In this document: positions 1,564 to 59,097 of the stretch, piece by piece
Layout: each line of letters starts with the position of its first letter
Position numbering within the stretch: the first letter of the stretch is position 1
From: a virus
Virus record (IMG/VR): IMGVR_UViG_3300009537_000007
Coordinates: 1-64,000 of that record
Direction: 5' to 3' (one strand)
Length of the DNA: 64,000 nt
Translations under genes and position numbers: made by a program
The notes under the pieces: model-generated
What the model saw: only the letters and a program-made list of their open reading frames with translations
Told to the model about the DNA's origin: nothing
Database searches by the model: none

Positions 1564-1788
1564 ATGACCGACAACCCAAATTGTTGCGGATCGGGCCCGC
1601 ACCGGGCCGGAACCGTTAAACTCTATCCTCTTGGCTATGGGCCCCTACACGGTAACTTGATTTTATGTCATGCCTGTTGGGCCAGGGAAAACCAATACCG
1701 CCATAATATGGGCCTAGAATACAAGCGGCCCGATGATTGGCCCCAACACGCCTGGAATGATGCCGAGGTTTATGGGACCTCCGCATGA
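1564..1788 (+). CDS. hypothetical Cys/His-containing protein (74 aa)
   Basis: AAGGGAG upstream; CCGSGPH...CHACW motif; ATGA overlap with the next ORF. Confidence 0.55.
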   Translation: MTDNPNCCGSGPHRAGTVKLYPLGYGPLHGNLILCHACWARENQYRHNMGLEYKRPDDWPQHAWNDAEVYGTSA

Positions 1789-1952
1789 CCCCCCAACCTA
1801 AACCCCAATTTTATGAATGCGGAATCTGCGGGGCCATTCATTCAGTGGAATGGCGTGGCGATTGCCGAGAAGATGCCGCGAGGCTAAACGTAGATCAATT
1901 AAACGAGACTTACGGCCCGGACGGATGGGAAGAAGTATCGATGCCTCAATAA
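1785..1952 (+). CDS. hypothetical CxxC small protein (55 aa)
   Basis: ATGA start/stop overlap with the upstream ORF. Encodes MTPQPKPQFYECGICGAIHSVEWRGDCRED.... Below the ORF-track cutoff. Confidence 0.45.
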   Translation: MTPQPKPQFYECGICGAIHSVEWRGDCREDAARLNVDQLNETYGPDGWEEVSMPQ

Positions 1953-1988
1953 AAAACCAGCAACAGCAAGGCCGCCAGCAAGATGAGG

Positions 1989-2684
1989 CTAATTCTTTTC
2001 ATGTTCGTCCCGGTAACTCAGCCAACGAACCCCATACAACTCCAGCCCACTCTTGAGGCGGGTTATCGCTTTTTCCCGTCCCATCCGGTGCCTGAGCCGC
2101 GCCGCCTTCACCGAAGCCCCGTCGATACAGATATCGATCACCAGGGGCAAATGCTGGTCCTGGGACCGGTGCATCTCATCCGCCCACGGTTTGTAGATAT
2201 GGTGATATCGATCTAAAACGGACTCTGACACCCGCAGACCATCAAAATGGCCGCTACCGCCGAGCCGGTCTGGATTCAAATTGCTACAACGAGCAGCCAC
2301 CGCCGATGTAACGGCCTCGAACAACCGCGCCAAAGACCTCGCTGATCTCTTGTGGTCCTCAGCCAAAACACCATTCTCGACCAACTTCTCAACCGGATCG
2401 TAACGTCCGGGCCTTACAACCATCTCTGCGGTCGGCCCGAAGAACTGCTGCCGGTGCGGATTTTCCTTGTCGGCATACTGGTTGATAAGATCGTTTAACT
2501 TCGTCGCTCTCTGTGATGCCCTTTCGGCCTCAGGACCGCCGGACCTCACCGCCCTCAGATAGTTATCCCTCAGATGCGCCGCATCATTCAACGCGCCGTG
2601 GAGCCGCATATCCAGCGCGGCCTTACGAGTCCTGTAAACCAGATCGAAAAACACATCCTCAACCGCTACCGCTGTGCCCCGCAT
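1989..2684 (-). CDS. hypothetical protein with C-terminal HTH-like segment
   Basis: 231-aa ORF downstream of the primase-helicase. C-terminal GASVKAARLRHRMGREKAITRLKSGLELY looks like a sigma region 4 / HTH helix pair. Start uncertain (alternative ATG at 2609). Confidence 0.55.
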   Translation of the reverse strand: MRGTAVAVEDVFFDLVYRTRKAALDMRLHGALNDAAHLRDNYLRAVRSGGPEAERASQRATKLNDLINQYADKENPHRQQFFGPTAEMVVRPGRYDPVEKLVENGVLAEDHKRSARSLARLFEAVTSAVAARCSNLNPDRLGGSGHFDGLRVSESVLDRYHHIYKPWADEMHRSQDQHLPLVIDICIDGASVKAARLRHRMGREKAITRLKSGLELYGVRWLSYRDEHEKN

Positions 2685-4497
2685 TTTTTTGCTCCAAATC
2701 CACGTAATGGTAATGCCCCTGCGGGCATTGGTTGCTTCGATACTGATAATTCTCGATGTTAAAGTGAAGCCTCACCCGCCCCGTCCAGTCGCCGTTGCGC
2801 TGCTTACTGACGTTCACCACGACACCCCCGGCATCCAAATACCGCTGCTCGTCTTCGGACAAGTCTTCATCGCTCTCTGCCCGCTCCCTCAGATTCTCCC
2901 AGTTTTTGTCACGCCATATCGATATAACATTAAACGCATTCGCCCCAATCTCCATAGCTCCCTTAACGTCTTCGATCTCCTGCGGGCCCGCACCGCGATC
3001 CCCCTTGCGGGCATGAGCGACGAAATGAACATGAACCACCCTATCGATAGCCCAGTCAACGACACGATACATCACCTGTTCCTGACCATTGTAATCATCG
3101 GACTCTATGCCGAGTCGCATCAGGGAATCGATCACAAACTGGTCACAGCCATACTTGGCGGCGGCATACTCGAAGGCCTCCAGCATCTCCTCAATCGAGG
3201 CCTTGCCCACCCGGTTGTAAACGACCAGACCGGGGTCCAGCCAAGCCAGGCATTGGTGGATATACTCCTCGGTGGGCCTGTCGGTGCCGGAAGTCTGCTT
3301 AACCATGCGCTTCAAGGTCTGCGGGGGGGCCATTTCCAAACTGGCCAGGCACACCCTGGAACCCTCCTTGATCCAGTAAACGATACAATCCGAAAGGATT
3401 TGTGACTTGCCGTGGCCAGAGGCCCCCGTCCAGATCGTAACCTCCCCCGGTCGGAAGATCACCTTATCGGTCAAGCTCCTGTATCTGAAGGAATATCCTA
3501 AATGCCGCCCCTCTTCCGGCCACAACAACCCCACAACGCTGGGCCCATAGTCTATTACCCGGGTCAGCGTTTCAGGGTCCAGCGTTACAGCCGCCGCAAT
3601 GGCTTCATCAATCTCTGCCTTCCGAACACCGCGCTGCAAACACTCGTTGGCATCTTTGTATGGAAGGGTTACAACCCGGCAACGGTGCCGCCCGAGCCTG
3701 CGACTGATCTCCTCCACCGCCGCCTTGCCCTCGGGATCGTTATCCAGGCACAGATAAATGGTTTCAAAACGGTCTAGATGCTCGTATTCGCTTTCAATCC
3801 AGTCCTGCTTACCGCCACCACCGCCGCCGAAAGGCACGGATACTGCGGGATACGAGTATGCCGCCATACTCATGGCGTCAATCTCGCCCTCGGTTATGTA
3901 GATTTCCCGGGTGTTGTCATCGACCGCCTGCCAGCCGAACAGTATTTTTTCGCAGCCCGGAGCCGTGGGGACCGGCTTCGCCCCGTCTTCCGCCAACCTG
4001 GTTTTAACCATAATCAACTCGCCCCCCCGGAGAAACGGGAAGACGATGTAATTCATCTGCTCACCAATCTTGTAAGCGCCCAAAACCTCTCCCGGGATAT
4101 TTCGATCTTCGACCAGATAATCCCTGACCCGGTTCCTGGGGGCCGAACATACCGGTTTAGGCGGCCTGACAAGCGGCCTTTCAGAAACGGGCCTGGTGTA
4201 AAACGGGGTTTCCACACCAAGCCACCCGCGAATGTCCTGAAGAGCCTCTACGACCGTTTTTTTCTGGACCTCTTTCCACAGGTCGATCAGATCGCCGCTA
4301 TCTCCGGTGGCAAAATCAGACCAGACCCCGGCTTTATTGCCCCTCAGACAAACCTTGAGGCTTTTTCCGGGCTCACCGCCGAGAGAGCCGACGCACCATT
4401 CCCCGCTTGCCGTCCTGCCGTTGGGTAACAGGTATTCACAGACCGACTGGGCCCGATCCGCCAACATGCGCTTGATTTCGTTGATGTTGGTCCTCAT
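2659..4497 (-). CDS. bifunctional DNA primase-helicase (TOPRIM + DnaB/T7 gp4-like)
   Basis: TOPRIM Glu (YITEGEIDAMS) and DxD (LDNDPEG). Helicase Walker A GASGHGKSQ, Walker B FVIDSL, and SKQRNGDWTG motif. Confidence 0.85.
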   Translation of the reverse strand: MRTNINEIKRMLADRAQSVCEYLLPNGRTASGEWCVGSLGGEPGKSLKVCLRGNKAGVWSDFATGDSGDLIDLWKEVQKKTVVEALQDIRGWLGVETPFYTRPVSERPLVRPPKPVCSAPRNRVRDYLVEDRNIPGEVLGAYKIGEQMNYIVFPFLRGGELIMVKTRLAEDGAKPVPTAPGCEKILFGWQAVDDNTREIYITEGEIDAMSMAAYSYPAVSVPFGGGGGGKQDWIESEYEHLDRFETIYLCLDNDPEGKAAVEEISRRLGRHRCRVVTLPYKDANECLQRGVRKAEIDEAIAAAVTLDPETLTRVIDYGPSVVGLLWPEEGRHLGYSFRYRSLTDKVIFRPGEVTIWTGASGHGKSQILSDCIVYWIKEGSRVCLASLEMAPPQTLKRMVKQTSGTDRPTEEYIHQCLAWLDPGLVVYNRVGKASIEEMLEAFEYAAAKYGCDQFVIDSLMRLGIESDDYNGQEQVMYRVVDWAIDRVVHVHFVAHARKGDRGAGPQEIEDVKGAMEIGANAFNVISIWRDKNWENLRERAESDEDLSEDEQRYLDAGGVVVNVSKQRNGDWTGRVRLHFNIENYQYRSNQCPQGHYHYVDLEQKNAGHSGSG

Positions 4498-42607: not shown

Positions 42608-43282
42608 TCAGCCCCCTATAGAAACCGACAAGTTCCCCTCGCCGATAGACACCGCAAGGTCGGTCCCGGCGAGTTCAAGGTCGCTATCCTCGTTTGCCTT
42701 GCCTATTTCACTGGTGGCGATACCGAGCCAATAAACTTTTTCCCGCTCGTTCTTCGTCCACTCATAACCCTTGTAAAGAACCGTGGCCCGGAGAAGGGTG
42801 GGATAATCATCAGTAAGAAAGTTGGTTTCGTTGGTCGTGGCAGCCAGCGCAGCAAGCGCCTTGTAATACATGAACAGATACGGATAACCCTGGTCAGCCT
42901 TAACCTCGAACTGGATATTGCTGGCGTCTGCCGCCCAATACTGGGGTCTGCCAGTCGTGCGGTTGCCGCTTCCGTCGTAATTAAAATTACTGACCACAAA
43001 ATCGATGGTCTTTTTGGTGACATGGGCCTTAGATACCGATGAGCTTCCGGTGAACATGAACAGAACCGACCCCTTGTAACCGGTCGGCAGGGTAATAGTG
43101 TCAGCATCGGCAGCAAGTGTGCCGGTGGCGGTAGTAATCATCTGACGCACGCGCAAGCGCTGATAAATCCAGGACTGGGCCTCGGTCAGCAGAGTTGCAG
43201 ACGGAGCGCCGCTGTGGTTCAGCCACTCCTTGATCGAACCTTCTGTGGTCTTGGCTCCGGTTAAAACGGTGTAAGTTGACAT
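42608..43282 (-). CDS. tail tubular protein A / adaptor-like (224 aa)
   Basis: Assigned by synteny (first tail gene after the capsid block) and size only. Confidence 0.4.
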   Translation of the reverse strand: MSTYTVLTGAKTTEGSIKEWLNHSGAPSATLLTEAQSWIYQRLRVRQMITTATGTLAADADTITLPTGYKGSVLFMFTGSSSVSKAHVTKKTIDFVVSNFNYDGSGNRTTGRPQYWAADASNIQFEVKADQGYPYLFMYYKALAALAATTNETNFLTDDYPTLLRATVLYKGYEWTKNEREKVYWLGIATSEIGKANEDSDLELAGTDLAVSIGEGNLSVSIGG

Positions 43283-44886
43283 TATCTATCCAACACTTCC
43301 TTGATTGCCTGGAACACGGTATCCGGTTTTATGCTTGCCGCGCACAAAGCAGCGCCGGTTTCCTCGTCATGAGGACAAAACTCCCTCGTATAATGCAGCC
43401 GGTGACACGGATAACAGTCCACATCTGGCTCGATAACCGTTGTGTTGTGCCAATGCTTGGTTAAATTCTCTTGGGTCGAATGCGAAAGCATTACCACCTT
43501 GGGAACGTCCAGAAGCCCACCGGCATTCATAACCCCGGTTTCAGGACCAACCAGAACATCAGCATAGGGGACAAACGAAAGCGTATCCCTAATACTCCAA
43601 TTACCGGACTTGCAGATCAGCCGATTCGCCCCGAAATACTTCTTCAACTTGAAAAGCAGCACCGACAGCTTGGTTTCATTTGTCTCCTCGTATGGCGTGC
43701 CGAAAATACTCTGGATAACCGTCTGGGTTATCCCCATCTCCAGCATTCGGCACAACTTATCACCACAGAAAACGATTTTGACATTCGTTTCGGCCAGCAA
43801 TCTCAGAACCACCTGCTCGGTCCACGGCCAGGTCTTGTTGACACTGGACCCGGCGAGAGTCCACAAGATCACCGGGACATCTCCCATTTTCTTCCGATAG
43901 TCCCCCGCTGCCGCGTCCTCGATCTTGGAGGGGTGGAACACCGCATGATACTTCTGCGGCACATCAGCCAGCATGTGAGTAAATTCGAGGTAGTTCAGAT
44001 TCTTGGTGGCGTGCCGAGCCGCCTTGGTCATGGCGTGATCGCGCCTACCAGGAAGCGCCAAAAGCGTCCCCTCGACGCTTTCCGACAAGTTGATGATCTT
44101 GTCGTATTCGTCTCCGAGCGCCTTCCAGTAATCCCCCAGTTGCTCGTTAGGAACCTGATTGTCGCCCTGCGGGCAAAATTCATCGATATACGGGTTATGT
44201 TTAAGTATGTCCTGCCCCTTCGGGGTGCATTGAAAGACGATGTGGTATTTCTCCCTCAGATAAGGAAGAATACTGGACGCTTGTATCATGTCCCCGAATC
44301 CACCATATCGTATCACCAGACAGGTCGGCTTGGTGGGCTTCTTGCTGTAAGAATACTCGCGCTTCTTGCCCTTCAGCTTTTTGTAAACCTGGAAAAACGA
44401 ATACTCGTCACGCTCGTTCCTGTCTTCGTTTTCAACCAGGTCCCAAGAGCCGACCCGCTCCATCACCCTGACGATATCCTCGGGCAGGAAATCGTGCTTG
44501 TGTTCCGGGTTATGTCCCGGCTCCCCGATATTCGGATAAAACCCCTTATGCGGCAGGTAAAGAACCAGATACCCGCCGGGCTTAATGACACGCCACCACT
44601 CCCTCAAAGTAGCCTCAGTATCCTCGACATGCTCAAGAAAGTGTGACGAATAAACAAAATCCATAGACCCTGCGGCGAATATGTCCAACAGGGTTCCATC
44701 CATTTTGATGTCGGGCGACCAATCCAGGTTCACCCATTCTTCTTTAGCGTCAATGGATATGAAGTGCGGCCATGCCTTCCATGGGCCACACCCGATGTCC
44801 AGCCCCTTGCCGCTCGTATAGGGAACGATCTTGTGCCTGATCTTCCCACTCTCATTGCCTTCCGGCGACCCTGCGATCCAGGTCAT
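43282..44886 (-). CDS. fusion: class I SAM methyltransferase + GT9 (heptosyltransferase-like) glycosyltransferase
   Basis: GLDIGCGPW, FVYSSHFLEH and IKPGGYLVLYLP in the N-terminal part. LVIRYGGFGDMIQASSILPYLREKY and LVGPETGVMNAGGLLDVP (GT9-like) in the C-terminal part. Start at an ATGA overlap. Confidence 0.65.
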   Translation of the reverse strand: MTWIAGSPEGNESGKIRHKIVPYTSGKGLDIGCGPWKAWPHFISIDAKEEWVNLDWSPDIKMDGTLLDIFAAGSMDFVYSSHFLEHVEDTEATLREWWRVIKPGGYLVLYLPHKGFYPNIGEPGHNPEHKHDFLPEDIVRVMERVGSWDLVENEDRNERDEYSFFQVYKKLKGKKREYSYSKKPTKPTCLVIRYGGFGDMIQASSILPYLREKYHIVFQCTPKGQDILKHNPYIDEFCPQGDNQVPNEQLGDYWKALGDEYDKIINLSESVEGTLLALPGRRDHAMTKAARHATKNLNYLEFTHMLADVPQKYHAVFHPSKIEDAAAGDYRKKMGDVPVILWTLAGSSVNKTWPWTEQVVLRLLAETNVKIVFCGDKLCRMLEMGITQTVIQSIFGTPYEETNETKLSVLLFKLKKYFGANRLICKSGNWSIRDTLSFVPYADVLVGPETGVMNAGGLLDVPKVVMLSHSTQENLTKHWHNTTVIEPDVDCYPCHRLHYTREFCPHDEETGAALCAASIKPDTVFQAIKEVLDR

Positions 44887-45116
44887 ACCGGCATCACCCC
44901 CACCCGACCAACATAGCACTTTGTCAAGTCATGCTCCCCCATAACTCGGTTCTTCGCCCCCCACCGATCAATGATATCCCTAACCGCCTGTTCGTCTCTC
45001 CACATCTGAGCCGTTTCCAGTGGCCCAAAACCATCATTGTAGGTTTTGCTCCATGTGCCCAGGTGCCTACCGTAATACTGTCCATTGAGAACAAGAACAT
45101 AAAGTGGCTTACTCAT
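44883..45116 (-). CDS. hypothetical protein (77 aa)
   Basis: ATGA-coupled on both sides, between the two glycosyltransferase genes. Confidence 0.5.
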   Translation of the reverse strand: MSKPLYVLVLNGQYYGRHLGTWSKTYNDGFGPLETAQMWRDEQAVRDIIDRWGAKNRVMGEHDLTKCYVGRVGVMPV

Positions 45117-46042
45117 ACCGGCAGCCCCATCGGGGAAATCTTGTTCATCGAAAGCGTCAATCGCTTCGTCGCCCATCCCGTCGTCTGTGCAAGAATCTTG
45201 GTATAGAGATACGGCAGTATCTCATCATTCATATCGGCCCTGTCCGGGTTGTTCTCTGCGAACCTTTCTGCCGTCTTCATCATTAGAATGTGGTTCGCGC
45301 ACAACTGATACATGGTAAGCTCCTGAAGCCGGGCGACCTCAGAATCCTCGCGCGCCGTCCTTATCCGCCCCTCCAAACCGGTATTGTTCTCGTCCGGGCG
45401 GCGAACATAAATATGAAGCGGCTCATGAATATAATACATGCTCCGCTTCAGCGTGGCACAAAACGGGACATAAACATCCACCAATGCGTGGTATGGCAAC
45501 GGCCCGAATTCCTCCATCAGCGCAGGATTCCAGGCGTTGGACGTTGAGCCGCCGACCATCTCGTTGATGCACTCGACGGTGCCGACAAATCTGCTTTCGT
45601 GTGGATACCCGGTCACTGAATCAGCCATGCCATTCTCAACCAACTCGTCGTGATTGGCAAAGTTCTGACAGGTCGCCACATAAAGCGGATTATGCTCACG
45701 AACGATATCCATCACTCGCCGGGCCCGCATGGGATAGGCCAGATCGTCCCCGGCCATCGTTATCCAGTAATCAAAATCCAGCCGGTCGTGGAGCCAGTTT
45801 ATGTGGTCCAGGAGTCCGGGCATGCCGCGATGCTCCGTCTTTGGGCACTGGAGCAGTAAAATCTTGTTTGGACCGTTATATTTCGCCGTCTCTGCCTTAA
45901 TGATGTCGAAGGTGTCGTCTTCCGACATCTGATCGCTGAACACCAGCGTCATTGGCGAATAATCCTGCGCCAGGACGGTCCTGACACATTCGGCGACGTA
46001 AGGAGCCTTATTCCTTACAAAAACGACGAACGCCACCCGCAT
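45113..46042 (-). CDS. family 2 glycosyltransferase
   Basis: VVFVRNKAPYVAECVRTVLAQDY...LVFSDQMSEDDT...MAGDDL (GT-A fold, DxD). Confidence 0.7.
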   Translation of the reverse strand: MRVAFVVFVRNKAPYVAECVRTVLAQDYSPMTLVFSDQMSEDDTFDIIKAETAKYNGPNKILLLQCPKTEHRGMPGLLDHINWLHDRLDFDYWITMAGDDLAYPMRARRVMDIVREHNPLYVATCQNFANHDELVENGMADSVTGYPHESRFVGTVECINEMVGGSTSNAWNPALMEEFGPLPYHALVDVYVPFCATLKRSMYYIHEPLHIYVRRPDENNTGLEGRIRTAREDSEVARLQELTMYQLCANHILMMKTAERFAENNPDRADMNDEILPYLYTKILAQTTGWATKRLTLSMNKISPMGLPV

Positions 46043-46043
46043 C

Positions 46044-46226
46044 CTACCCCCCCCGGATGGCGTCAGCTAATTTGTCCGATTCCTTTTTGGTTTTTTGGGC
46101 AGGCTCTTTCTCGGCCACCACCTCGTTGCCCTGATGGTCAAACGGAATGCCGTCCTGCTCGTATTTAATGCCGCCGTTATCGCCGATGAACTCGGCATAG
46201 GGCTTCTTGAGATTGAGTTTCTTCAT
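46044..46226 (-). CDS. hypothetical protein (60 aa)
   Basis: GAGGAG upstream; follows a hairpin. Confidence 0.5.
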   Translation of the reverse strand: MKKLNLKKPYAEFIGDNGGIKYEQDGIPFDHQGNEVVAEKEPAQKTKKESDKLADAIRGG

Positions 46227-46252
46227 GGTTCTCTCCTCACAAAAGAAAGGTG

Positions 46253-46272
46253 GCCCGGGGTTTCCCCCGAGC
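46253..46272 (-). terminator. possible attenuating hairpin CGGGG-GAAA-CCCCG
   Basis: GNRA-capped 5-bp stem followed within 8 nt by UUUCUUUUGU. Confidence 0.3.
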
Positions 46273-46280
46273 CATCAGGT

Positions 46281-46445
46281 TTATTTGAAGTTGAAGCTGT
46301 TGCCCCGATGCTTGACGGACGTATCGCCCTTCATGCCGCCATCCCCCTTTTGACCCATGAGATGGGTCTGCGGGCCTTTCGGCGCGGAGTTCAACTCCTT
46401 CTTCTTGTTCGGATTACGCCCCGAGGGCGCTTTCGTATCGGTCAT
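46281..46445 (-). CDS. tiny Lys/Gly-rich protein (54 aa)
   Basis: AAAGGAG upstream. Below the ORF-track cutoff. Confidence 0.45.
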   Translation of the reverse strand: MTDTKAPSGRNPNKKKELNSAPKGPQTHLMGQKGDGGMKGDTSVKHRGNSFNFK

Positions 46446-46447
46446 CA

Positions 46448-46573
46448 CTAGGCTCCTTTCTTGTAGCCACGCTTCAGGTCTTTTTCACTCGAACCCTTCA
46501 GCGATTTGTCGATTGGGTATCCGGGTTTCGTGGGGGCCTGAGAATAGCCCTCACCCGACTTGTTGTGTTTCAT
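46448..46573 (-). CDS. tiny Lys/Gly-rich protein (41 aa)
   Basis: GAGAGGA upstream. Its stop is 2 nt before the next start. Shares an S-x-KDL-x-RGY motif with 46576. Confidence 0.4.
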   Translation of the reverse strand: MKHNKSGEGYSQAPTKPGYPIDKSLKGSSEKDLKRGYKKGA

Positions 46574-46575
46574 AG

Positions 46576-46785
46576 CTAGTTCCTCTCTACGTCACACTTG
46601 TAACGAGGACGGCTAAGAAAACCCGGCTCGTCGGCTTCAACGAGGTCCACGCCTGAAAAAGCAGGTTTGGTCTGCCCTTCAGGCGCGGCATTGAAATACC
46701 CGCGAGACAGGTCGCCATCCTCAAGGTCCTTGAGAGACGAGCCGAACTTGGTGCCCCCCAAGGTTTTCTTGGTGTCAGAGTTCAT
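46576..46785 (-). CDS. small hypothetical protein (69 aa)
   Basis: ORF-track ORF containing SSLKDLEDGDLSRGYF. Confidence 0.5.
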   Translation of the reverse strand: MNSDTKKTLGGTKFGSSLKDLEDGDLSRGYFNAAPEGQTKPAFSGVDLVEADEPGFLSRPRYKCDVERN

Positions 46786-46799
46786 GAGAAACTCCTGAG

Positions 46800-47174
46800 T
46801 TAGGATTGCGTTGCGTCAGGAAGGACCTCGTATTCGATGACACAATTGGCAACCGCAGTCGCGTCCGTGCCTTTTACGAGCTTGACTTCCGTAAGAGCAG
46901 CAAGTGAGGTCGTGAAGGTTACACTGGAACTTACACCAGAAGCAACCGTGCCCATATCCAGAACGCCAACCGAAGTGGTGCCGATCTGAATTTCGATCTT
47001 GTTGCCAGCCGCACCGGTAGAGGTGCCAGCCACGGACATGGACGCATGGACACCCTTGAGCCTCATCTTTTGAAACGAAGCGAACCTCAGGGCAGACGAC
47101 AGGGTTGCGGGCATCGTTACCGAATGCTCACGCCGAACCGTATAGTTCGGATGGTCGTATTGATGAATAGGCAT
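46800..47174 (-). CDS. beta-rich head-associated protein candidate (124 aa)
   Basis: First ORF after the capsid terminator hairpins; S/T/V/G-rich. Confidence 0.5.
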   Translation of the reverse strand: MPIHQYDHPNYTVRREHSVTMPATLSSALRFASFQKMRLKGVHASMSVAGTSTGAAGNKIEIQIGTTSVGVLDMGTVASGVSSSVTFTTSLAALTEVKLVKGTDATAVANCVIEYEVLPDATQS

Positions 47175-47300
47175 ACCTATTACTCCGCTCTCGCAGCCTC
47201 CTTACGAGAACAAAATGGAGAGAGAAAGGCGAGGAAGGCCGCCTTTTCCCGCAGTCTCCTTGCGGGGGAATTAAGACCTTTCCGGGAGGAAGACCCGTAA

Positions 47301-47329
47301 GGTGGGTGGGAAAACTTTTCCCACCCACC
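47301..47329 (-). terminator. strong hairpin after the capsid gene (GGUGGGUGGGAAAA-C-UUUUCCCACCCACC)
   Basis: 14-bp perfect stem 14 nt after the exon 3 stop. Two further hairpins follow (CCCGCA/UGCGGG, AAGGCG/CGCCUU plus a U-rich run). Confidence 0.55.
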
Positions 47330-47342
47330 TCAGGAAGAAGTC

Positions 47343-47462
47343 TTAAGCCGCGCTATCCCATTTGACCACGCGAGCTTGTGCGGCAGCCGTCTGCGTCAGG
47401 CCGTAGCCCAGCAACGAATACCACGCGATACCCTTGGAACGTCCGTAATCGGACGGGATTTT
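47343..47462 (-). CDS. major capsid protein, exon 3 of 3 (39 aa)
   Basis: Open frame KIPSDYGRSKGIAWYSLLGYGLTQTAAAQARVVKWDSAA-stop begins 8 nt after the HNH stop. DYGRSKG-AWY is a capsid C-terminal motif I recall from HK97-fold families. It joins in frame to ...EEMRG. Confidence 0.65.
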   Translation of the reverse strand, partial: KIPSDYGRSKGIAWYSLLGYGLTQTAAAQARVVKWDSAA

Positions 47463-48261
47463 CACTAGGTTCACACAGCTTCGTTAGAGCCGTGCCGTGC
47501 AGCATACTTACCATGACGGTGATTACCGTGCTGGGAACGAATTTTGCCCTTGGCCGTCGTGCGGCGGCTTCCACGAACTATCCTGCTTACCTGAGCCTCA
47601 GAAATATCAAACCTTTCTGCGATCTCATATTGCCGAACACCTTTATCGGCAAGACAGCGGATTTTCAAAACGGCAGTATCATTAACCTTTGACTGACCGT
47701 TTTTCGTGCCGTTACATGCCCTACCCTTTTCCGCCATATCACGCATATTATCTGCCTGCGTCCCGAGAAATAAATGATCCGGGTTTACACAAAGCGGATT
47801 ATCGCAAGTATGACAAACGCTCATTGACCTCTTACCGCTGGGTTCGTTTGGGATGGAACCCTTAGACAAAACATAAGAAAGACGATGAGCATAGACTGGA
47901 ATGCGCCCCAACGGGGTTTCCAGCCAGAGAAGGCCATAACCATGGCTGGTGCCTTCGCACCATTCCCAACAACCATTTTCAAGGACTTTCCATCGGCCCT
48001 TAAAAAATTGCTGCACTGCTGCACGTTTCCGTGCAGATCGGACTATATCATCACCCCACCGGGGCGTCTGGCGCTTGGGGCTCACTTGAGCCCTACTCCC
48101 TCTCGGGATAGTCTCTGGACCGTCCTCTTTCGAGGCTTGGCTGCGGATTACCATGACCTGATATCCTTCTATGCAAGAAGGTAATTTACCAGACTTTAGG
48201 CTTCCCGTCAATTCACCAGATTATTGCCTGCGTATTACTACGCAGCGAGGCGTAAATCTTC
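47463..48261 (-). mobile_element. group I-like intron 2 (799 nt) carrying an HNH endonuclease ORF
   Basis: 5' exon ends in U and the intron ends in G. P1: exon GGGGU with GCCUC (intron nt 11-15). P10: GAUUU (nt 4-8) with exon 3 AAAUC. GNRA-capped hairpins at 48228-48245, 48124-48135, 48097-48108 and 48019-48036. Confidence 0.6.
47471..48211 (-). CDS. HNH (HNH_3-type) homing endonuclease with C-terminal HTH
   Basis: GCWEWCEGTSHGYGLLW...YAHRLSY...CHTCDNPLCVNPDHLFLGTQADNMRD plus GVRQYEIAERFDISEAQVSRIV. The true start is probably internal (ATG 48154 or GTG 48016), because the 5' part overlaps ribozyme-like hairpins. Confidence 0.75.
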   Translation of the reverse strand: MTGSLKSGKLPSCIEGYQVMVIRSQASKEDGPETIPRGSRAQVSPKRQTPRWGDDIVRSARKRAAVQQFFKGRWKVLENGCWEWCEGTSHGYGLLWLETPLGRIPVYAHRLSYVLSKGSIPNEPSGKRSMSVCHTCDNPLCVNPDHLFLGTQADNMRDMAEKGRACNGTKNGQSKVNDTAVLKIRCLADKGVRQYEIAERFDISEAQVSRIVRGSRRTTAKGKIRSQHGNHRHGKYAARHGSNEAV

Positions 48262-49116
48262 ACCCCTCATTTCCTCAGGGATCACGATGCCTTCCGCAAC
48301 GGTGTCTTCGCCGAAGAAGAAACACCAGTCGGATTTAGCACCATTCCAGGCATCGGCAGTGCCGGTGCTGGCATTCCAAGTAGTCGAGTCAGCCGCGCCA
48401 CCCTTGGGGATGAACGTCTGTTCGACAAACCGGACGTTCTCGTAACGCCCGACTTCACCGTTATGAATGAGCGTAAAGCCCTTCTCGGTGTATTGGTGGA
48501 TGGACTCCAGATCGTTTTTCAGAGTCCGGTAGGTGGAAGGCCACCCCAATGCAACGTAGTCGTCACCGACGTAGGGCGGAATGTTGCGCTCCTTCATGGT
48601 GTCAACGACGAGTTTGACATGCTCCTTCTGCAGGGCGATGTTGTTGGTCGCCGTAGCAGTGCCGTCCGTGGTGAGAGTCAGGGACGCAGTGGAGGTTCCG
48701 GCGGAAGCCGGGACAACGCGAAGCGGAGTCGTGTTGAACTGCGCGTGTGCGTCGATGTCAAACGCCTTGGTGGCGTCGTTCTTGAGAACCTTGTGAATGA
48801 TCTCGCGGATCGGCTGTTCACTCAGATCGTCAAGTTTGCCGGTATATGGAACCGAATTACCATACTCAGTCACGGTCAGCGTGCCTTGCGTGATCGTGAA
48901 CTGCGTTTCCGGCATGGTGGAGGTTTCCGTCAGGGTTCCACCCTGGTTGGAAACATCCGAATACACATTCCAATGGAACGTGTCGCCCTTACCGAGCATA
49001 TTACCTTCGGGGTTTCGAGCTTTCGTCGCGTCTTTTGCATCGCAAAATTGGCGAAACTTACACATGGGCTGAACAGCCATGCGAAGCTCCCGACTCAACT
49101 TATCGGAATACATGAA
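48262..49116 (-). CDS. major capsid protein, exon 2 of 3 (285 aa; HK97-fold type)
   Basis: FMYSDKLSRELRMAVQPMCKFRQFCD...GKGDTFHWNVYSDV... is a typical capsid sequence. Follows the scaffold gene. The ORF-track version (48238..49113) adds a 7-aa tail read from intron sequence. Confidence 0.75.
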
Positions 49117-49865
49117 CGTCCTGTTACTTTCAGCTAAAGAAGGAATCTAGCCTACTAACCAGTGATTACTGGCGAGACGACATTTCTGCCGCCTTCTTGT
49201 GCTCTCACACAAGACCGGACTATATCTTAACCCTTCATGGAAAGGGTTTCTGGCGTGTAGTCTCTGGGGATTCTATCAAGCAGTTCTTTCGGAACCGGCC
49301 TGTTACGCTCACTGGTTTTATACAGTTCGTATAACAAACACCAATCCTCGGTATCGTAGTTACTCTTGCGCCGGTCATGTGAACCGTTTTTCTTTTTTTG
49401 CAAGAGCCGCAGAACAAGATAAACACGATGCTTCTTCTCGCCAGCAAGGTGTGGATAAATAGCTTCAAGAATTATCCGCATGTATTCCTGCCGGTGAACC
49501 CGAATGGTTAAATAAGATTTCTCTTTTTTCAACCAGGTCGTGCCGCTCTTTTTCTCAACCTCGCGGTTGCTCTCGGTGATATATGGCTCTACACCGAGCT
49601 TGCTCATGACGGACATTGCTTTCCTGATAATACCGCCATCGGTATTGTGCCACTGCACGGCGAGGTCCATACCAACATACCCCTTGTGCTTTTTACGCAC
49701 GGAATATGATATGGAGCCGTCAGCATCAAGAAAACCTGCCAACCATCCTACTTCTGCTTCTGTAATAGTTTCCTGCATATTGCCCAATTCCTCGGATTTT
49801 TGCTAAGTAGCACCTTGGACTCTAAGGGTGTTCACGCATATAGCCAGATTTCAGGTAGCCTTTCA
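49117..49865 (-). mobile_element. group I-like intron 1 (749 nt) carrying a LAGLIDADG endonuclease ORF
   Basis: 5' exon ends in U (GGU) and the intron ends in G (..GGACG). P1: exon GGGUGGU with GCUACCU (intron nt 7-13). P10: UGAA (nt 1-4) with exon 2 UUCA. In-frame UGA at intron nt 1-3. Confidence 0.55.
49227..49787 (-). CDS. LAGLIDADG homing endonuclease
   Basis: VGWLAGFLDADGSISYSV motif; K/R-rich 186-aa ORF. Confidence 0.75.
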   Translation of the reverse strand: MGNMQETITEAEVGWLAGFLDADGSISYSVRKKHKGYVGMDLAVQWHNTDGGIIRKAMSVMSKLGVEPYITESNREVEKKSGTTWLKKEKSYLTIRVHRQEYMRIILEAIYPHLAGEKKHRVYLVLRLLQKKKNGSHDRRKSNYDTEDWCLLYELYKTSERNRPVPKELLDRIPRDYTPETLSMKG

Positions 49866-49904
49866 ACCACCCAAGGAGTTTGTTGCCCAAACTTGTGCAA
49901 CCAT
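49866..49904 (-). CDS. major capsid protein, exon 1 of 3 (13 aa, MVAQVWATNSLGG)
   Basis: AAGGAG 9 nt upstream of the ATG, right after the scaffold stop. ...NSLGG joins exon 2 to give NSLGGFMYSDKLS, a motif I recall at the capsid N-terminus. Confidence 0.55.
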
Positions 49905-49918
49905 GGTTGTTTACTCCT

Positions 49919-51001
49919 TCAGAGTTGTTTTTGGCGGCCCTTGATAATCTCCGCGATACCCTCCTGCCTGATCTCAACATCCGTCTTGGGTTTTTGAGGT
50001 GCAGCAGGGCCACCGCTTTGGACAGACCGCCCGGTTGGTGGTTTGACCGAAGCACGTTTTTCCGCCGACCTGTCTTTCGACAGGTTGACTTCTGCTCGGC
50101 CATTATCATCCCGATTAGGTTCAGCGCCCTCAGAGTCCTGACCGCTCGCTTTCTTCAGCCAACCACGGGTGATTACACCGGCACGATTGAAGATGTCCCG
50201 ATACGGCGGGCGAGGTTGCCCGCTTTTGGAGGCTTCAAGTGCTTCCGTGTAAAGCTTGTTGCCGATCTGGCCCGCAAGCTGAGAAAGATATGGATCGTTA
50301 ACGATGTCTGAGTATTCTTCACCGAATTCGGCTAGGGCCTGGTTCCATTCAATGCGCTCCATGACCCTTACTTCTACTTCTTCAGGCGAGGAACCTGCCC
50401 CGCCACGAAGGCTTTCTGCGGCCTTCTTTAACGCCGCAGCGGCTTCTTCCTTGTCGCCATACTGCAGCTTCTCCGCGAGATCGTCCCAGTTTGCCTGGGA
50501 TGGATCGTCTGGTGATTCTTTCTCGGGTGGCTCTTCCGCCCCCTCATTTTCTATCTTACCGGCCCTCTCCCTTGCTCTTTCCTCAAGTTCGTGGGCCCGT
50601 TTGAGAGACTCAGCGGCCTCGTTCATACGAGTCCGGGCCGCCTGCTCTATCTGATAATTCTTTTGAAGCTCGGCAAGAGTGACCTTCTGCTTCTGACCGT
50701 CAACGACGACCTCATACAGTTGCTCGTCCTGCTCTTCCTGCTCGTCCGGCTCTTCCTGCTCGGCAGATTCCTGCTCGGCAGATTCCTGCTCACCGTCTGG
50801 GGCGGCTTCCTGCCCCCCCTCTTCAGTGATCTCCTCCACCTCAAAGCCATCAGCCTTCAGCAAGTCGTTTCTTGCCTTGGTGATGTCCTCAATCGCTGCG
50901 CTCCTCCGGTCAATCGGATGGGGGCCAACAATTGCTTCGGTAGAATCAATAACGGCCCCATCCGGGGCCGCCTCTTCATTCGCCGCTTGCTTTCGTGGCA
51001 T
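49919..51001 (-). CDS. scaffolding protein (360 aa)
   Basis: Acidic, helical, E/A/Q-rich with an ESAEQESAEQ repeat. Sits between portal and capsid. Start at a TAATG overlap. Confidence 0.6.
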   Translation of the reverse strand: MPRKQAANEEAAPDGAVIDSTEAIVGPHPIDRRSAAIEDITKARNDLLKADGFEVEEITEEGGQEAAPDGEQESAEQESAEQEEPDEQEEQDEQLYEVVVDGQKQKVTLAELQKNYQIEQAARTRMNEAAESLKRAHELEERARERAGKIENEGAEEPPEKESPDDPSQANWDDLAEKLQYGDKEEAAAALKKAAESLRGGAGSSPEEVEVRVMERIEWNQALAEFGEEYSDIVNDPYLSQLAGQIGNKLYTEALEASKSGQPRPPYRDIFNRAGVITRGWLKKASGQDSEGAEPNRDDNGRAEVNLSKDRSAEKRASVKPPTGRSVQSGGPAAPQKPKTDVEIRQEGIAEIIKGRQKQL

Positions 51002-51291
51002 TACTTGTCCTCTTCTTCCAAGGTTTCTTCCTCTACCTCCATAGCCTGATGAATCATCTCCGTTATCGTCTCCTCTATCCAATTGAGACGGTAAACGGCG
51101 TTCTGATGCTTCATGATCTCTTTCGTGTCAGTCGGATCGATATGACACAGCGCGTCCTTGGCATCTTCGCGCTCACGCTCCAACTGGACCACCAGCATGG
51201 CCCAGCCTTTGCTTTCCTTAAGTTTTAAAAGCTCCTCTCCGGCAGCGATTAACGTCTGAGCGGTTACTTCAGGTTCCGTTTGGTCCACCAA
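51001..51291 (-). CDS. hypothetical acidic protein (96 aa)
   Basis: ORF between portal and scaffold. Overlaps the portal end by 23 nt. Confidence 0.45.
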   Translation of the reverse strand: MVDQTEPEVTAQTLIAAGEELLKLKESKGWAMLVVQLEREREDAKDALCHIDPTDTKEIMKHQNAVYRLNWIEETITEMIHQAMEVEEETLEEEDK

Positions 51292-53491
51292 TCAACTCCT
51301 GTAGCGTATTCTTTCTCACCTCGTTTCCAGTTTTGAGCGTTTCCAGTTCCCGATTGGCCTGCGCCCTCGACTGCTCCATATCCGCACCCTGGCGGCCCTT
51401 AAGAATTTCCTTCTGCAGAGTTGCTGTCGCCCGCTTGTCTTCCTGTTCAATATGGCCCTGGTTCTCAAGGTGCTGTTGCAGCACACGACTCATCGCGCTC
51501 ATGCGGGCAACCTCGACCTTGGCCTCGGCGTCGATCTCCTTGGTTTCAAGTTTCCGGTTCAACTCTTCGATCTGCTGCTGGAGCATCTGCACCATCGGAT
51601 CGACATCATCGAACTTGAAGAACCTCTTGCCGTCCCTGTAGCCAAGCGGGCCGAAGATTTCCTTGATTACTTCCTCGATATTCAGGAAAACATTCAAGCT
51701 ATCGCCGAAAATCGCACCGACCGACTCAGCGGCAATCCTGAACTTGTTAAGACGCTGCATAGGATCGGTAGCCCCGATTCCCACGTTCACCCTGATCGTC
51801 AAATCCTGGTCAAGAATCTTGTCGGTAATACGGTCAACGCCGAATTTCTGATACACCTGCGCCTTCTCCCCGGCGAGAGCGACCAGCTTTTCGTCCGTCT
51901 CATACGTCTGTTCCAGCCTGAGTATCTGCCTCAGGACCGGCTCGACCCAGGTTTCCGTAAACACCCGCAGATCAAGCTCCCCGACAAGATTCGCAGAACC
52001 GGACAACATCTCCATGCCGCCGACCGTTTCATTCATACGCCGGTTGGTCTGGACGGTGCCGGTAGAAAACGACCCGACAACATCGTCGAAGTCGGCATTG
52101 ATACGGTCCTGTTCCATGTAGGATGACTGAGTAACGTCCCTGGTTTCGAGGACCTTCACATCGCTATCGGTGTCTGAAACGAGGGTGGCGCTGCCGGGCG
52201 TGTTCCTCAAAATACTTCTAAGATCGACCTGCTTGCCGCGCTTGACCAGATACCGCTTGCCGAGGGCCAACTTGACATTATCCAGCCTGAGATTGACCAC
52301 ATCATTGGCTTCGGCCTGCAGGCCTTCCGTCAATTGGGGGACACCGCCCGGATAGGTTTTGTTCGTCTCCAGCATGGAATAACCCATGACGACAGGGCGA
52401 TCCCCATCCTTGCAGTGACGATATATCTCTTCCAACGGCACCGGATCGGAAAGAAGATCGGCCACACCCGCCGTGTAATAAACCCAATCGCGCCCCTTCC
52501 ACCGGATGATGTTCTCATGAACCCAGACGATGGAAAACTCTTCAACTGGAATTTCGCTTTCCTTGGAATCTTCACGATGCCCCTCACGATGAGATCGCGT
52601 TGAATCCCAAAGATGCCTGCTGGACGCCGCCTTCAATTCGGCCCTGCCAAGTTTCTTCCAGACTGGCTGGCCGTTCTTGGCGTTGGCCTCGTCCATGCGC
52701 TCCTCAACCTCATGAATATACATGGGGGTAAGAATAATCACGAATGGGCTGGTATTGATCGGGTCGCGCCAATCGGCCCCACGGTCTATCCGCACATTCT
52801 CGGGCGGCAGGACATCGATCCGTGGACGGTCGCGGAGAACAACCACATCCTCCACCGACTCCATGACCGGCAGGCCGTCATCGCCGACGACCGGCTCTCC
52901 CGTCACCTGATCCACGGCAGGCACATCAATGATTTCGATCCGCTCCTCGTATTCCCACCACTGCTTGGAGATGACCACGCCGTATTTACGGGCGTCCTGA
53001 TAAGCCCCGACAACCGTCATGAACCACGGAATGCCAGCCCGCTGGTTCGGAACCGTCAGCCGGTATTGCAGTAATTCCTTATTGATATCCGCGCTGACGC
53101 GCTGAATGTGGTCGCTATCGTTTGACGGGCGCACAGTGATGGCGTCCTCATTTGAGAAAAACGATGCCGCAGCCTGGGCCTCTCCCTGACGGATCGTTGC
53201 CCGCGTCTTGGGTCTGAACAGCTTGGAACGGGCCTTGAACGACTCCGAAAGATATTTGGAGCCGGAGGGGTGCCTGTTCTGAAACGAGCGCTCGCCCTTC
53301 TCCCACTGTGAACGAAGACTGGAATCCAAAAACTTGGTGCTGTCTTCATAGGCGTCCTGAGCCAGCTTTAACCAATCCGGCCCGGCAACATCCTTTTCGT
53401 TTTTCTCATTTCCGGTTTCTAGGCGATCCGCGCTGTCCCCCACAGACGCATCTTCGCCGGATGGCCCGTAGGGCGTTTTTACCTTGACCAC
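51269..53491 (-). CDS. portal protein (740 aa)
   Basis: Assigned from size and its position between terL and scaffold/capsid. No motif verification. Confidence 0.6.
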   Translation of the reverse strand: MVKVKTPYGPSGEDASVGDSADRLETGNEKNEKDVAGPDWLKLAQDAYEDSTKFLDSSLRSQWEKGERSFQNRHPSGSKYLSESFKARSKLFRPKTRATIRQGEAQAAASFFSNEDAITVRPSNDSDHIQRVSADINKELLQYRLTVPNQRAGIPWFMTVVGAYQDARKYGVVISKQWWEYEERIEIIDVPAVDQVTGEPVVGDDGLPVMESVEDVVVLRDRPRIDVLPPENVRIDRGADWRDPINTSPFVIILTPMYIHEVEERMDEANAKNGQPVWKKLGRAELKAASSRHLWDSTRSHREGHREDSKESEIPVEEFSIVWVHENIIRWKGRDWVYYTAGVADLLSDPVPLEEIYRHCKDGDRPVVMGYSMLETNKTYPGGVPQLTEGLQAEANDVVNLRLDNVKLALGKRYLVKRGKQVDLRSILRNTPGSATLVSDTDSDVKVLETRDVTQSSYMEQDRINADFDDVVGSFSTGTVQTNRRMNETVGGMEMLSGSANLVGELDLRVFTETWVEPVLRQILRLEQTYETDEKLVALAGEKAQVYQKFGVDRITDKILDQDLTIRVNVGIGATDPMQRLNKFRIAAESVGAIFGDSLNVFLNIEEVIKEIFGPLGYRDGKRFFKFDDVDPMVQMLQQQIEELNRKLETKEIDAEAKVEVARMSAMSRVLQQHLENQGHIEQEDKRATATLQKEILKGRQGADMEQSRAQANRELETLKTGNEVRKNTLQELIGGPNGT

Positions 53492-53839
53492 CTATTCCTC
53501 CGGTTTCTCAAAAATCATTTGCCTGTTTTCCAAATCATCGGGACGAAACTTCCCTGAATGCAACTTCAAATGCTCATATCTCTCAAGGAAATCCCCGCCC
53601 GCACGAATGACCTGAATCTCAAGATCGGGGCCGTCGATTTCGCTCTTCCTATTAAAGAAACCCATCTTCCCGTAAGGATCGCAGGTGAGATTCCTGATTA
53701 TCACCGCGTCCTGTTCAGGAGGGATATCCACACGCCACGACCAGCCCTCGTAAACCTCCGAAAGTATCCTGCCGATCTTCGCGGCAAGAACACGATCTTG
53801 GGGCCTGTCCCGTGGGCTGTCTTCAATACTTACACTCAT
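53492..53839 (-). CDS. hypothetical protein (115 aa)
   Basis: Abuts the portal start. Confidence 0.55.
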   Translation of the reverse strand: MSVSIEDSPRDRPQDRVLAAKIGRILSEVYEGWSWRVDIPPEQDAVIIRNLTCDPYGKMGFFNRKSEIDGPDLEIQVIRAGGDFLERYEHLKLHSGKFRPDDLENRQMIFEKPEE

Positions 53840-53976
53840 TCGACATCATCCTCTGCATCCTCGTCGGGCTGCGTCATGATTTCGATAATGTTCTGCTTTT
53901 CCAAATCTGACATGAACTCATATTCGCGCCGGGTAAACATTGCTCTCAGAATTCCCGGCAGATCGTCGTAGATCAT
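53836..53976 (-). CDS. hypothetical acidic protein (46 aa)
   Basis: ATGA overlap downstream and TAATG overlap upstream. Below the ORF-track cutoff. Confidence 0.4.
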   Translation of the reverse strand: MIYDDLPGILRAMFTRREYEFMSDLEKQNIIEIMTQPDEDAEDDVE

Positions 53977-54140
53977 TAGGTTTCATAGGGGCCCTTGGTC
54001 GGCCCCGAATCCCTGCGATGCCTGCCGCCGGAAAACCGATAGACGATTGGATATAGGCTCTCGGTATGCCAACTGGGGCCAGCAGCCTCCTGGACCAACT
54101 CCCGCCACCCTCTGGTTGTCGTTGTCGGTTTCCGTGCCAT
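53976..54140 (-). CDS. hypothetical basic protein (54 aa)
   Basis: GGAG 5 nt upstream of the ATG at 54140, just after the LamG stop. Confidence 0.4.
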   Translation of the reverse strand: MARKPTTTTRGWRELVQEAAGPSWHTESLYPIVYRFSGGRHRRDSGPTKGPYET

Positions 54141-58937: not shown

Positions 58938-59014
58938 TGGTCGGGGGGGCTGGATTTGAACCAGCGGCCCTTCGCTCCCAAAGCGAATGCGCTACCAGAC
59001 TGCGCCACACCCCG
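58938..59014 (-). tRNA. tRNA-Pro (anticodon UGG), CCA encoded
   Basis: Hand-folded cloverleaf: acceptor CGGGGUG/CCCCCCG (one mismatch), D stem GCGC/GCGC, anticodon stem UUCGC/GCGAA with loop UUUGGGA, T arm GCUGG-UUCAAAU-CCAGC, then A-CCA. Confidence 0.85.
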
Positions 59015-59022
59015 ATAATTTT

Positions 59023-59097
59023 TGGAGCCGGTTACAGGAGTCGAACCCGTGCCTCATCCTTACGAAAGGTGCGTGCTGCCGTTAACACTAAACCGGC
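59023..59097 (-). tRNA. tRNA-Thr (anticodon CGU), CCA encoded
   Basis: Acceptor GCCGGUU/AACCGGC, anticodon loop UUCGUAA, T arm ACGGG-UUCGACU-CCUGU, then U-CCA. One C-A mismatch in the anticodon stem. Confidence 0.7.

Follow-up and report, generated by a model that had tools for sequence, protein, structure and literature searches.

Group I introns that carry GIY-YIG and HNH endonuclease genes are classic features of T4-like, SPO1-like and Twort-like phages, and the T4 nrdD (sunY) intron is a known case of an open reading frame (ORF) lying 3′ of the ribozyme core, with a remote 3′ splice junction. The present analysis deals with a major capsid gene that is very probably interrupted by two such introns, intron 1 with a LAGLIDADG and intron 2 with an HNH homing-endonuclease ORF. 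The gene lies on the minus strand of a 64,000-nucleotide stretch of viral DNA, positions 1 to 64,000 of the IMG/VR record IMGVR_UViG_3300009537_000007, the whole of which is called the window here; all window features located below are on that strand. The T4 td, nrdB and nrdD introns, with I-TevI, I-TevII and I-TevIII, are self-splicing subgroup IA introns in phage protein genes that also carry homing-endonuclease ORFs, and they combine a sequestered ribosome-binding site with an ORF whose end overlaps core helices (PMC3073962, PMC2988022). They differ from the window in their host genes, which serve nucleotide metabolism, in their single intron per gene, and in their enzymes, which are of the GIY-YIG class, or HNH in the case of I-TevIII.

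Introns in capsid genes have been described as well. Splicing of the capsid-gene intron of mycobacteriophage LittleE, which carries a LAGLIDADG-like ORF, was proven by reverse transcription PCR and N-terminal sequencing, and a group I-type intron has been published in the major capsid gene of the lactococcal phage Tuc2009 (PMC3706429). Both cases differ from the window in having one intron per gene, in coming from siphoviruses of Gram-positive hosts and in belonging to another capsid family and intron lineage. Several introns in one gene, as in the window, are found in orf142 of Staphylococcus phage Twort, which has three group I (IA-type) introns (cited in PMC6669764). Intron-encoded HNH enzymes, as in intron 2, are represented by I-HmuI and I-HmuII of the DNA polymerase intron of the Bacillus phages SPO1/SP82 (cited in PMC3706429). 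LAGLIDADG genes are uncommon in phage introns (PMC3984707). Jug jumbo and crAss-like phages are likewise uncultured and have many group I introns in essential genes (terL, nrdD, DNA polymerase), the Jug phages reaching a mean of 18.5 introns per genome; of 76 introns predicted there, metatranscriptome reads confirm 37 (PMC12880540). These are however Bacteroides phages of 360-400 kilobases (kb) with mostly ORF-less introns of ~200 nucleotides (nt), whereas the window represents a ~64-kb phage of the SU10-portal type, whose introns bear ORFs and are concentrated in the capsid gene. Introns in capsid genes, phage genes with several introns and the overlap of ORF and core are already published, and the window adds to these known kinds. 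What appears modestly new is that one capsid gene combines two classes of endonuclease, that a LAGLIDADG intron lineage, rare in phages, occupies two sites, and that a core is conserved of which 136 nt are probably dual-coded.

The capsid ORF of the window (291 amino acids (aa), 48238..49113, identical to the public gene call P0003) corresponds to exon 2 (48262..49116, 285 codons, delimited by alignment to homologues) with a read-through into intron 2. The missing ends are supplied by two short exons. Exon 1 (49866..49904) extends over 13 codons, from ATG at 49904 to GGT at 49866, and encodes MVAQVWATNSLGG. It starts 14 nt past the stop of a 387-aa scaffold-like ORF, has the Shine-Dalgarno (SD) sequence AAGGAG 10 nt upstream (within 49920..49905), and ends in GGU with UGA immediately next. 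Exon 3 (47343..47462), whose frame opens 8 nt past the stop of the HNH ORF, encodes KIPSDYGRSKGIAWY...KWDSAA in 39 codons followed by TAA, and has neither an AUG nor a recognisable SD of its own. Joining 49904..49866, 49116..48262 and 47462..47343 (39 + 855 + 120 nt) gives 337 codons and a stop, that is, a predicted major capsid protein of 337 aa.

This spliced protein was compared by tblastn with 50,697 GenBank phage records, 42 of which match at least 80% of it, each in one single piece. The best matches are Vibrio phages, with 51% identity over residues 1-337. Identities with Vibrio and Escherichia phage capsids range from 51 to 57%, and those with 12 metagenomic homologues from 74 to 85%, without gaps at either junction. 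In a collection of 5.8 billion proteins, the top matches are uninterrupted proteins of 336-337 aa with 82 to 85% identity, the clipped exception being P0003 of the window itself (291 aa). The intron-less homologues cross junction 1 as ...NSLGG[FY]MYSDKLS... and junction 2 as ...EEMRGKIPSDYGRSKGIAWY... (LGGFMYSD and RGK[IL]PTD[YF]GRSKG). They open with M-x-x-Q-[VIL]-W-...-GG, and exons 1 and 3 contain residues that are invariant or nearly so across the whole alignment. The last base is U in both 5′ exons and G in both introns; this group I rule and the reading frame together leave a single possible junction per site. The predicted joins are GGGUGGU/UUCAUG and GAGGGGU/AAAAUC, the slash marking the junction (in longer form UUGGGUGGU/UUCAUGUAU and AUGAGGGGU/AAAAUCCCG). 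The original prediction had proposed a capsid ORF truncated at both ends, an exon 1 with a good SD right after the scaffold stop, an exon 3 frame 8 nt past the HNH stop, U and G at the splice sites, and a 337-aa product with restored conserved motifs. All these elements were recovered when re-derived from the sequence, and the end-to-end alignment with intron-less homologues, gapless at both joins, bears out its three-exon model.

As to its family, the protein passes Pfam Phage_capsid_3 (26.8 versus a cut-off of 23) and matches PHROG 1357 'major head protein' (E 6e-18). Close homologues are named 'N4-gp56 family major capsid protein' by JGI. The protein scores 48.9 bits with the NCBIfam equivalog of that name, TIGR04387, and thus misses its cut-off of 60 bits; it is best treated as related to the N4-gp56 family, not as an equivalog.

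Intron 2 (47463..48261, 799 nt) is readily recognised by the Rfam model Intron_gpI (RF00028, gathering score 50 bits), which it matches with 92.6 bits (E 1e-23) over the full model, 1-253, at 48271..48019. Its catalytic core, from the paired element P1 to P9, is thereby placed at 48019..48271, the endonuclease gene lying 3′ of P9. P1 is formed by GGGGU of the exon (48266..48262) and GCCUC (48251..48247), and P10 by AAAUC of exon 3 (47461..47457) and GAUUU of the intron (48258..48254). Further helices are P2 (48245..48228), P7.1 (48108..48097), P7.2 (48093..48078), P8 (48065..48053) and P9 (48036..48019). Four hairpins have GNRA loops, namely P2 (CUGCGUA-GUAA-UACGCAG), P6a (CCUC-GAAA-GAGG), P7.1 (UCCC-GAGA-GGGA) and P9 (CUGCACG-GAAA-CGUGCAG). 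P7.1 and P7.2 (GGGCUC-AAGU-GAGCCC) sit between AGACUA, the 5′ strand of P7, and GCCAGA of P3′. Two helices at this place are the mark of subgroup IA, as in T4 td and Twort, and the core, with its P7.1 and P7.2, presumably resembles the Twort ribozyme. Judged from its visible helices, and not from subgroup-specific models, intron 2 is IA-like (IA2-like). Homologous introns are found at exactly the same codon boundary in the related contigs L031, L033, L036 and L038 (EEMRG/KIP, or EEVRA/KLP in L038); there too, G is the last base of the intron and U that of the 5′ exon, and P1 and P10 change with the exon.

The 3′ splice site of intron 2 lies 555 nt beyond the core. The 3′-terminal domain (47463..47494), located within and just past the end of the HNH ORF, consists of the hairpin CACGGCU-CUAACGA-AGCUGUG (47494..47474), followed by UGAAC, five bases and the terminal G (47463). 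In L031, L033, L036 and L038 its stem shows covariation (CACGGCU/AGCUGUG, CGCAGCC/GGCUGUG, CACAAGG/CCUUGUG), with UGAAC and a terminal G after it. Support for the hairpin comes from this covariation; its single-sequence fold is no more stable than shuffles (z = -0.04), which speaks against it. A pairing of UGAAC with GUUCA of the joining segment J6/7 was considered and dropped, since it is mismatched in the window. In Vibrio phage 1.232.O, whose intron is ORF-less, P9 and P9.1 are directly followed by the same terminal domain, so that the HNH gene looks inserted between P9 and that hairpin.

Intron 1 (49117..49865, 749 nt) is on the sequence evidence a genuine group I ribozyme, as indicated by a partial Rfam match, a consensus fold and covariation. 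RF00028 matches it at 49367..49196 with 39.8 bits (E 7e-8). Its P1 (49853..49872) pairs GGGUGGU of the exon (49872..49866) with the guide GCUACCU (49859..49853), with U.G at the splice site, and covaries with the exon in eight relatives. P10 pairs UGAA (49865..49862) with UUCA of exon 2 (49116..49113). The 3′ core (49196..49264) comprises the 5′ strand of P7, P3′, P8, J8/7, the 3′ strand of P7 and P9 with a GAGA loop, and is followed by P9.1 (49193..49176), P9.1a (49172..49159) and P9.2 (49151..49133). An alignment of seven homologous intron-1 sequences, from which 410 to 495 nt of ORF interior had been removed (alignment A4), was folded with RNAalifold. P1 (with the exon), P3, P4, P5, P5a, P6, P6a, P8, P9, P9.1, P9.1a and P9.2 are recovered, and 46 of the 70 pairs show compensatory changes. 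When P7 is included as a pseudoknot (75 pairs in 14 helices), 93.5% of the cells are paired, compared with 70.6% after shuffling and 34 to 42% after sliding. Both sides change in 48 of the 75 pairs, which was reached in none of 500 shuffles; these covariation counts come from small alignments of related sequences. P1, P3 to P9 with the P3/P7 pseudoknot, and P9.1 to P9.2 are backed by covariation.

Several expectations of the original prediction can be settled at this point. The P1 and P10 pairings that it quoted are fully complementary in both introns, and in both families, relatives at the other insertion site included, they covary with the exon sequence. Its count of at least four GNRA hairpins in intron 2 agrees with the four located, and the P3-P9 core on which it staked its case is present, by covariation, in the seven intron-1 homologues. 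The Rfam comparison that it looked to gave a divided answer, intron 2 passing at 92.6 bits and intron 1 falling below the gathering score. Another feature common to intron 1 and its relatives is that one of the first two intron codons (+1 to +6) is UGA or UAA, a stop in frame with the exon. Such a stop is present in all eight introns of this type, those of the window (UGA, 49865..49863), L004, L023, L040, L030, L026, L041 and L161, and would make ribosomes on an unspliced 5′ exon end before entering the ribozyme.

Two results weigh against splicing as proposed. Intron 1 misses the RF00028 gathering score (39.8 versus 50 bits), with only the P7-P3′-P8-P9 half sensibly aligned. The exact 24- and 25-mers of the spliced junctions are absent from JGI metagenome contigs, which thus contain neither a cDNA (complementary DNA)-like contig nor an intron-less twin. 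The low score of intron 1 is attributed to the 480-nt ORF in the P6a loop, which breaks the model. It could also mean that the introns are real and that one or both have decayed, splicing being inefficient or dependent on a cofactor (for example a LAGLIDADG maturase), or the phage defective. The P6 stem that closes the 480-nt loop has indeed just 3 base pairs, and maturase activity is documented for a bacterial LAGLIDADG protein (PMC3984707). Such decay looks unlikely, however: none of the core helices is broken and all show compensatory evolution, neither ORF is interrupted, the phage cannot do without its capsid gene, and a complete structural module is present on the contig.

A more radical view would be that free-standing endonuclease genes broke the capsid gene, leaving either fragments that are each translated on their own or a dead gene, with no splicing at all. 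Free-standing HNH genes are common in phages: Rfam finds no group I intron beside the HNH relatives L006 to L022 in IMG/VR (48% identity or less), which are thereby uninformative for the intron, and Vibrio phage 1.232.O has such a gene right downstream of its capsid gene. Yet both segments of the window contain group I cores whose P1 and P10 pair and covary with the exons. Exon 1 has moreover just 13 codons, exon 3, of 39 codons, lacks a start signal, and both contain near-invariant residues; we regard this view as very improbable. Splicing of the three exons across two introns, both presumably self-splicing, is thus retained with high confidence.

The endonuclease ORF of intron 1 (49227..49778, 183 aa, ATG at 49778; public call P0121, also 183 aa) is extended to 49227..49787 in the mechanical ORF list. 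Its AUG lies in P4′, its body in the P6a loop, and its 3′ end runs through P6a′, P6′, J6/7, P7, P3′ and P8 to the stop UAA in J8/7. The LAGLIDADG class assigned to it by the original prediction is upheld by Pfam (PF14528 LAGLIDADG_3, 31.9 bits versus a cut-off of 22.5). One LAGLIDADG motif is found in the 183 aa (LAGFLDADG, GWLAGFLDADGS, with a terminal acidic residue). A sequence search of the PDB retrieved I-OnuI and I-MsoI chains (E 2.5e-5 to 1e-3), over the N-terminal 50 residues only. The family is small, with seven proteins in the 5.8-billion-sequence database. A peptide-pattern search of IMG/VR returned zero LAGLIDADG relatives, and a comparison with GenBank phages no close relative, only matches of ~29% inside annotated portal genes of Gordonia phages. 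The candidate target of the enzyme is the join ...CUUGGGUGGU/UUCAUGUAUUC... as present in the intron-less relatives L003 and L005.

Start codons vary among the LAGLIDADG relatives, that of L030 being located in J3/4-P4 and those of L004 and L040 in the P5 extension. Such variation is predicted by the 'core creep' of Edgell, Chalamcharla and Belfort (2011), in which endonuclease ORFs invade structural elements by gaining a start or losing their stop (PMC3073962). Overlaps of ORF and core have been tabulated from 0 to 81 nt, with a caution about annotation errors (PMC3073962, PMC3984707).

The overlap in intron 2 is larger. The HNH ORF (47471..48154, 227 aa) opens at AUG 48154 in J5/4-P5′; the mechanical ORF list starts it at TTG 48211 (47471..48211). 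The protein combines an HNH_3 / His-Me finger with a C-terminal helix-turn-helix (HTH) part, and Pfam PF13392 HNH_3 (35.7 bits, cut-off 24.8) and PF05551 (32 bits, cut-off 27) agree with the HNH class originally proposed. Residues H109, H134, C136, D137, C141, H146 and N155 are invariant in 22 sequences, and PHROG endonuclease families match with E down to 7e-30; a sequence search of the PDB gave no solved relative. The original prediction had also noted that this ORF overlaps the ribozyme core. The first 136 nt indeed double as P4′, P6, P7, P7.1, P7.2, P3′, P8, P7′ and P9, an arrangement kept by ~20 homologues. These are 40 to 63% identical and all start at the AUG equivalent to 48154. Their common start M-x-I-[RS]-S-Q-A is encoded by AUG GUA AUC CGC AGC CAA GCC, which is J5/4-P4′-P6. 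They then read EGSETI (..CAGAGACUAU, J6/7-P7) and WGEDIVRS (..GAUGAUAUAGUCCG, J8/7-P7′) ahead of the HNH domain. Indels between the AUG and that domain are whole codons, and the called HNH ORFs overlap the Rfam core by 136 to 142 nt in five loci. For I-TevI, the documented overlap is 20 nt at the 3′ end, in contrast with 136 nt at the 5′ end here. The SPO1 HNH ORF is situated in P8 with a 9-nt overlap (PMC3073962), whereas that of intron 2 lies 3′ of P9. Compared with the core-creep table, the overlap of the window exceeds the 0 to 81 nt range, and it is backed by ~20 homologues and by SD sites.

Whether translation really begins at AUG 48154 deserves discussion, since several points weigh against it. 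The conservation of the N-terminus could partly mirror constraint at the RNA level, the set of homologues relies on automated gene callers that pick the longest ORF, and a GUG just past P9 is a possible alternative start. The protein might accordingly start after P9, for example at the GUG at ~48010, the open frame through the core being a by-product of conserved RNA without dual coding. The core motif ATGRYAATCMGCAGCSAAGCC, which contains the AUG, is indeed found in at least 119 IMG/VR stretches, mostly without a long ORF, and the free-standing HNH relatives begin near the residue that matches the post-P9 position. The frame is nevertheless open from the AUG in all ~20 HNH-intron homologues, whereas among the mostly ORF-less introns with ATGRYAATCMGCAGCSAAGCC it stays open for at least 45 codons in only 13 of 122 (11%). 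An SD-like site precedes the AUG in just 5 of 118 ORF-less relatives (4%), and is present in the window (GAAGGA), L033, L036, L038 and L051. A start past P9 is thus the less probable option, though one to be taken seriously, and initiation at AUG 48154 is probably real.

Five of the six bases of this SD (48169..48164) are covered by a hairpin in the P5 extension (48165..48181, CCUUCU-UGCAU-AGAAGG), seen in both the minimum free energy and the centroid fold. The hairpin is not significantly more stable than shuffles (z = -1.6), which tells against it, and a sequestering of the SD that would resemble the ribosome-binding site of I-TevI is suggestive only. As a separate observation among the stretches L042-L160, a long ORF of 110 to 229 codons starts at the ATGRYAATCMGCAGCSAAGCC AUG in four, L051, L108, L123 and L047. 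That of L051 has an HNH-like and that of L123 a GIY-YIG-like sequence (...YYLVSRSTKWYYIGITKN...), and different endonuclease families may have adopted the same core AUG.

The distribution of these introns is patchy. Intron-less capsid alleles are found in close relatives of 82 to 85% protein identity, such as L003 (85% identical, with GGA at the Gly13 codon) and L005 (GGC), and 78 of the 80 best IMG/VR capsid loci are uninterrupted. L004 has intron 1 only. The position after Gly13 is occupied in the window, L004, L023 and L040, and a related intron is inserted after Arg35 (..KFR/QFCD..) in L030, L026, L041 and L161. In L161, whose capsid is 84% identical, this site-B intron stands instead of intron 1 and encodes a very different LAGLIDADG protein (24% identity). 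The contigs of the LAGLIDADG family all place the ORF between the scaffold gene and the capsid gene body. Because intron-less alleles exist in close relatives and both endonuclease ORFs are intact with conserved catalytic residues, the introns are read as mobile; the pattern is that of homing elements, which would involve cleavage and homing by both enzymes. P0018 (323 aa; L005, 961-1932) was considered as a second carrier of intron 1 and rejected, the gene being intron-less and the public call having picked an internal ATG.

Since the contig is a metagenome assembly, one may ask whether the assembler stitched intron-like segments of foreign origin into the capsid gene. The related contig L041 starts with Illumina adapter sequence (TCCCTACACGACGCTCTTCCGATCT, 1-25), an assembly artefact that leaves its intron region unaffected. 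The same intron-site arrangements however recur across independent samples and assemblers (L004, L023 to L025, L031, L033 to L039), and the guide sequences fit the local exons, which makes a chimera scarcely credible.

A scan of the whole window with Rfam at E <= 0.01 gave no third intron. In related SU10-portal-type phages, capsid-gene introns occupy at least six sites, after residues 13, 35, 102, 193, 298 and ~312, with one to four introns per gene. The original prediction held two introns with two endonuclease classes in one such gene to be unusual, which is true of cultured phages and not of this clade. In L036 (ENA ERZ27247824 k141_568724, 125-3193) and L037, which has the same element, the capsid gene has apparently five exons and four group I introns. 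They are located after residue 35 (LAGLIDADG ORF at 319-945), after 102 (ORF-less, Rfam 39 bits, 1157-1433), after 298 (HNH ORF at 2139-2804, Rfam 71.8 bits) and after ~312 (site F; ORF-less, Rfam 79.7 bits, 2818-3064). Only ~50 nt of exon separate the third intron from the fourth. L033 (2842-3607; also L034 and L035) has an intron after residue 193 (MKERNIP/AYTGDDY) with a weak Rfam match of 32 bits and a LAGLIDADG_1 ORF on the opposite strand (2984-3412, minus), in addition to a site-C HNH intron. This antisense ORF can be likened to that of the LittleE intron, which is also antisense, unlike those of the window (PMC3706429). Vibrio phage 1.232.O._10N.261.51.E11 (MG592596.1, 5200-9800; L241) has a capsid gene interrupted after ..GVAW by a group I intron that lacks an ORF and is not annotated (Rfam 83.1 bits, at ~2323-2655 in the locus). 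Its GenBank coding sequence is cut to 290 aa, the last ~25 codons being unannotated.

These data can be assembled into a tentative scheme. A late transcript with the scaffold and capsid genes would carry both mobile introns, each folding as a ribozyme whose guide pairs with the last 5 to 7 exon bases in P1, with U.G at the cleavage site. The 5′ splice site would be attacked by an external guanosine; P10 and the 3′-terminal helices would then position the terminal G in the P7 pocket for ligation of the exons. Two such events would yield the messenger RNA for the 337-aa capsid protein, of HK97 type and of the N4-gp56 / Phage_capsid_3 kind. During mixed infection with a related phage whose capsid allele lacks the intron, each enzyme, that of intron 1 presumably as a homodimer, would cut or nick this allele, and recombinational repair would copy the intron in. 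The LAGLIDADG ORF in the P6a loop appears to creep into the core at both ends. The HNH gene, between P9 and the 3′-terminal hairpin, would be translated from the J5/4 AUG, which requires the ribosome to unfold P4′ to P9. As 136 nt would serve both as core and as coding sequence, ribosome transit and ribozyme folding should exclude one another on each RNA molecule, and a conflict between translation and splicing of intron 2 RNA would follow. In its fullest form, the proposal is that the LAGLIDADG-intron lineage re-targeted its guide sequence between sites 66 nt apart, that the capsid gene is an intron hot spot with at least six sites, and that the HNH lineage fixed a dual-coded segment of 136 nt with a translation-or-splicing switch; we consider this combination to be evenly poised between right and wrong.

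The capsid gene is accompanied by genes for an SU10-type portal, a scaffold-like protein, a family-2 glycosyltransferase, a methyltransferase and an SU10-type adaptor. The glycosyltransferase and methyltransferase genes (45113..46042 and 43282..44919) lie between those of capsid and adaptor, where relatives (L003, L026, L033, L036) have more sugar-modifying genes (Glyco_transf_4, epimerase/RmlD-like, cupin), which is unusual in a head module. A near-perfect stem of 14 base pairs, GGUGGGUGGGAAAA-G-UUUUCCCACCCACC (47329..47301), starts 13 nt past the capsid stop; it has no U-run and was not reported by a terminator scan. Promoter and terminator consensus counts in 47000..50200 are no higher than in shuffles, and a promoter inside the introns is not claimed. 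Compared by megablast with GenBank phages, 46000..54000 gave no match. Farther away, two adjacent transfer RNA genes are located at 58941..59014 and 59026..59097 (Rfam 62.1 and 49 bits).

These findings leave the general view of group I introns in phages as it was. Their practical consequence is that unrecognised introns clip the capsid protein in the public calls for the window contig and in the GenBank record of Vibrio phage 1.232.O, and that capsid phylogenies and structure predictions of the clade inherit clipped N- and C-termini. Few late genes are expressed as highly as that of the capsid, which requires its introns to splice fast and accurately. With one to four introns and three endonuclease arrangements, the clade offers a natural system for studying site choice, movement between sites and core creep, as well as the way in which endonuclease translation and ribozyme folding are reconciled. 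Vibrio phage 1.232.O, which is cultured, could serve as an experimental model. If translation and splicing are indeed mutually exclusive on each RNA molecule, the intron would contain a built-in switch between its selfish spread and the expression of its host gene.

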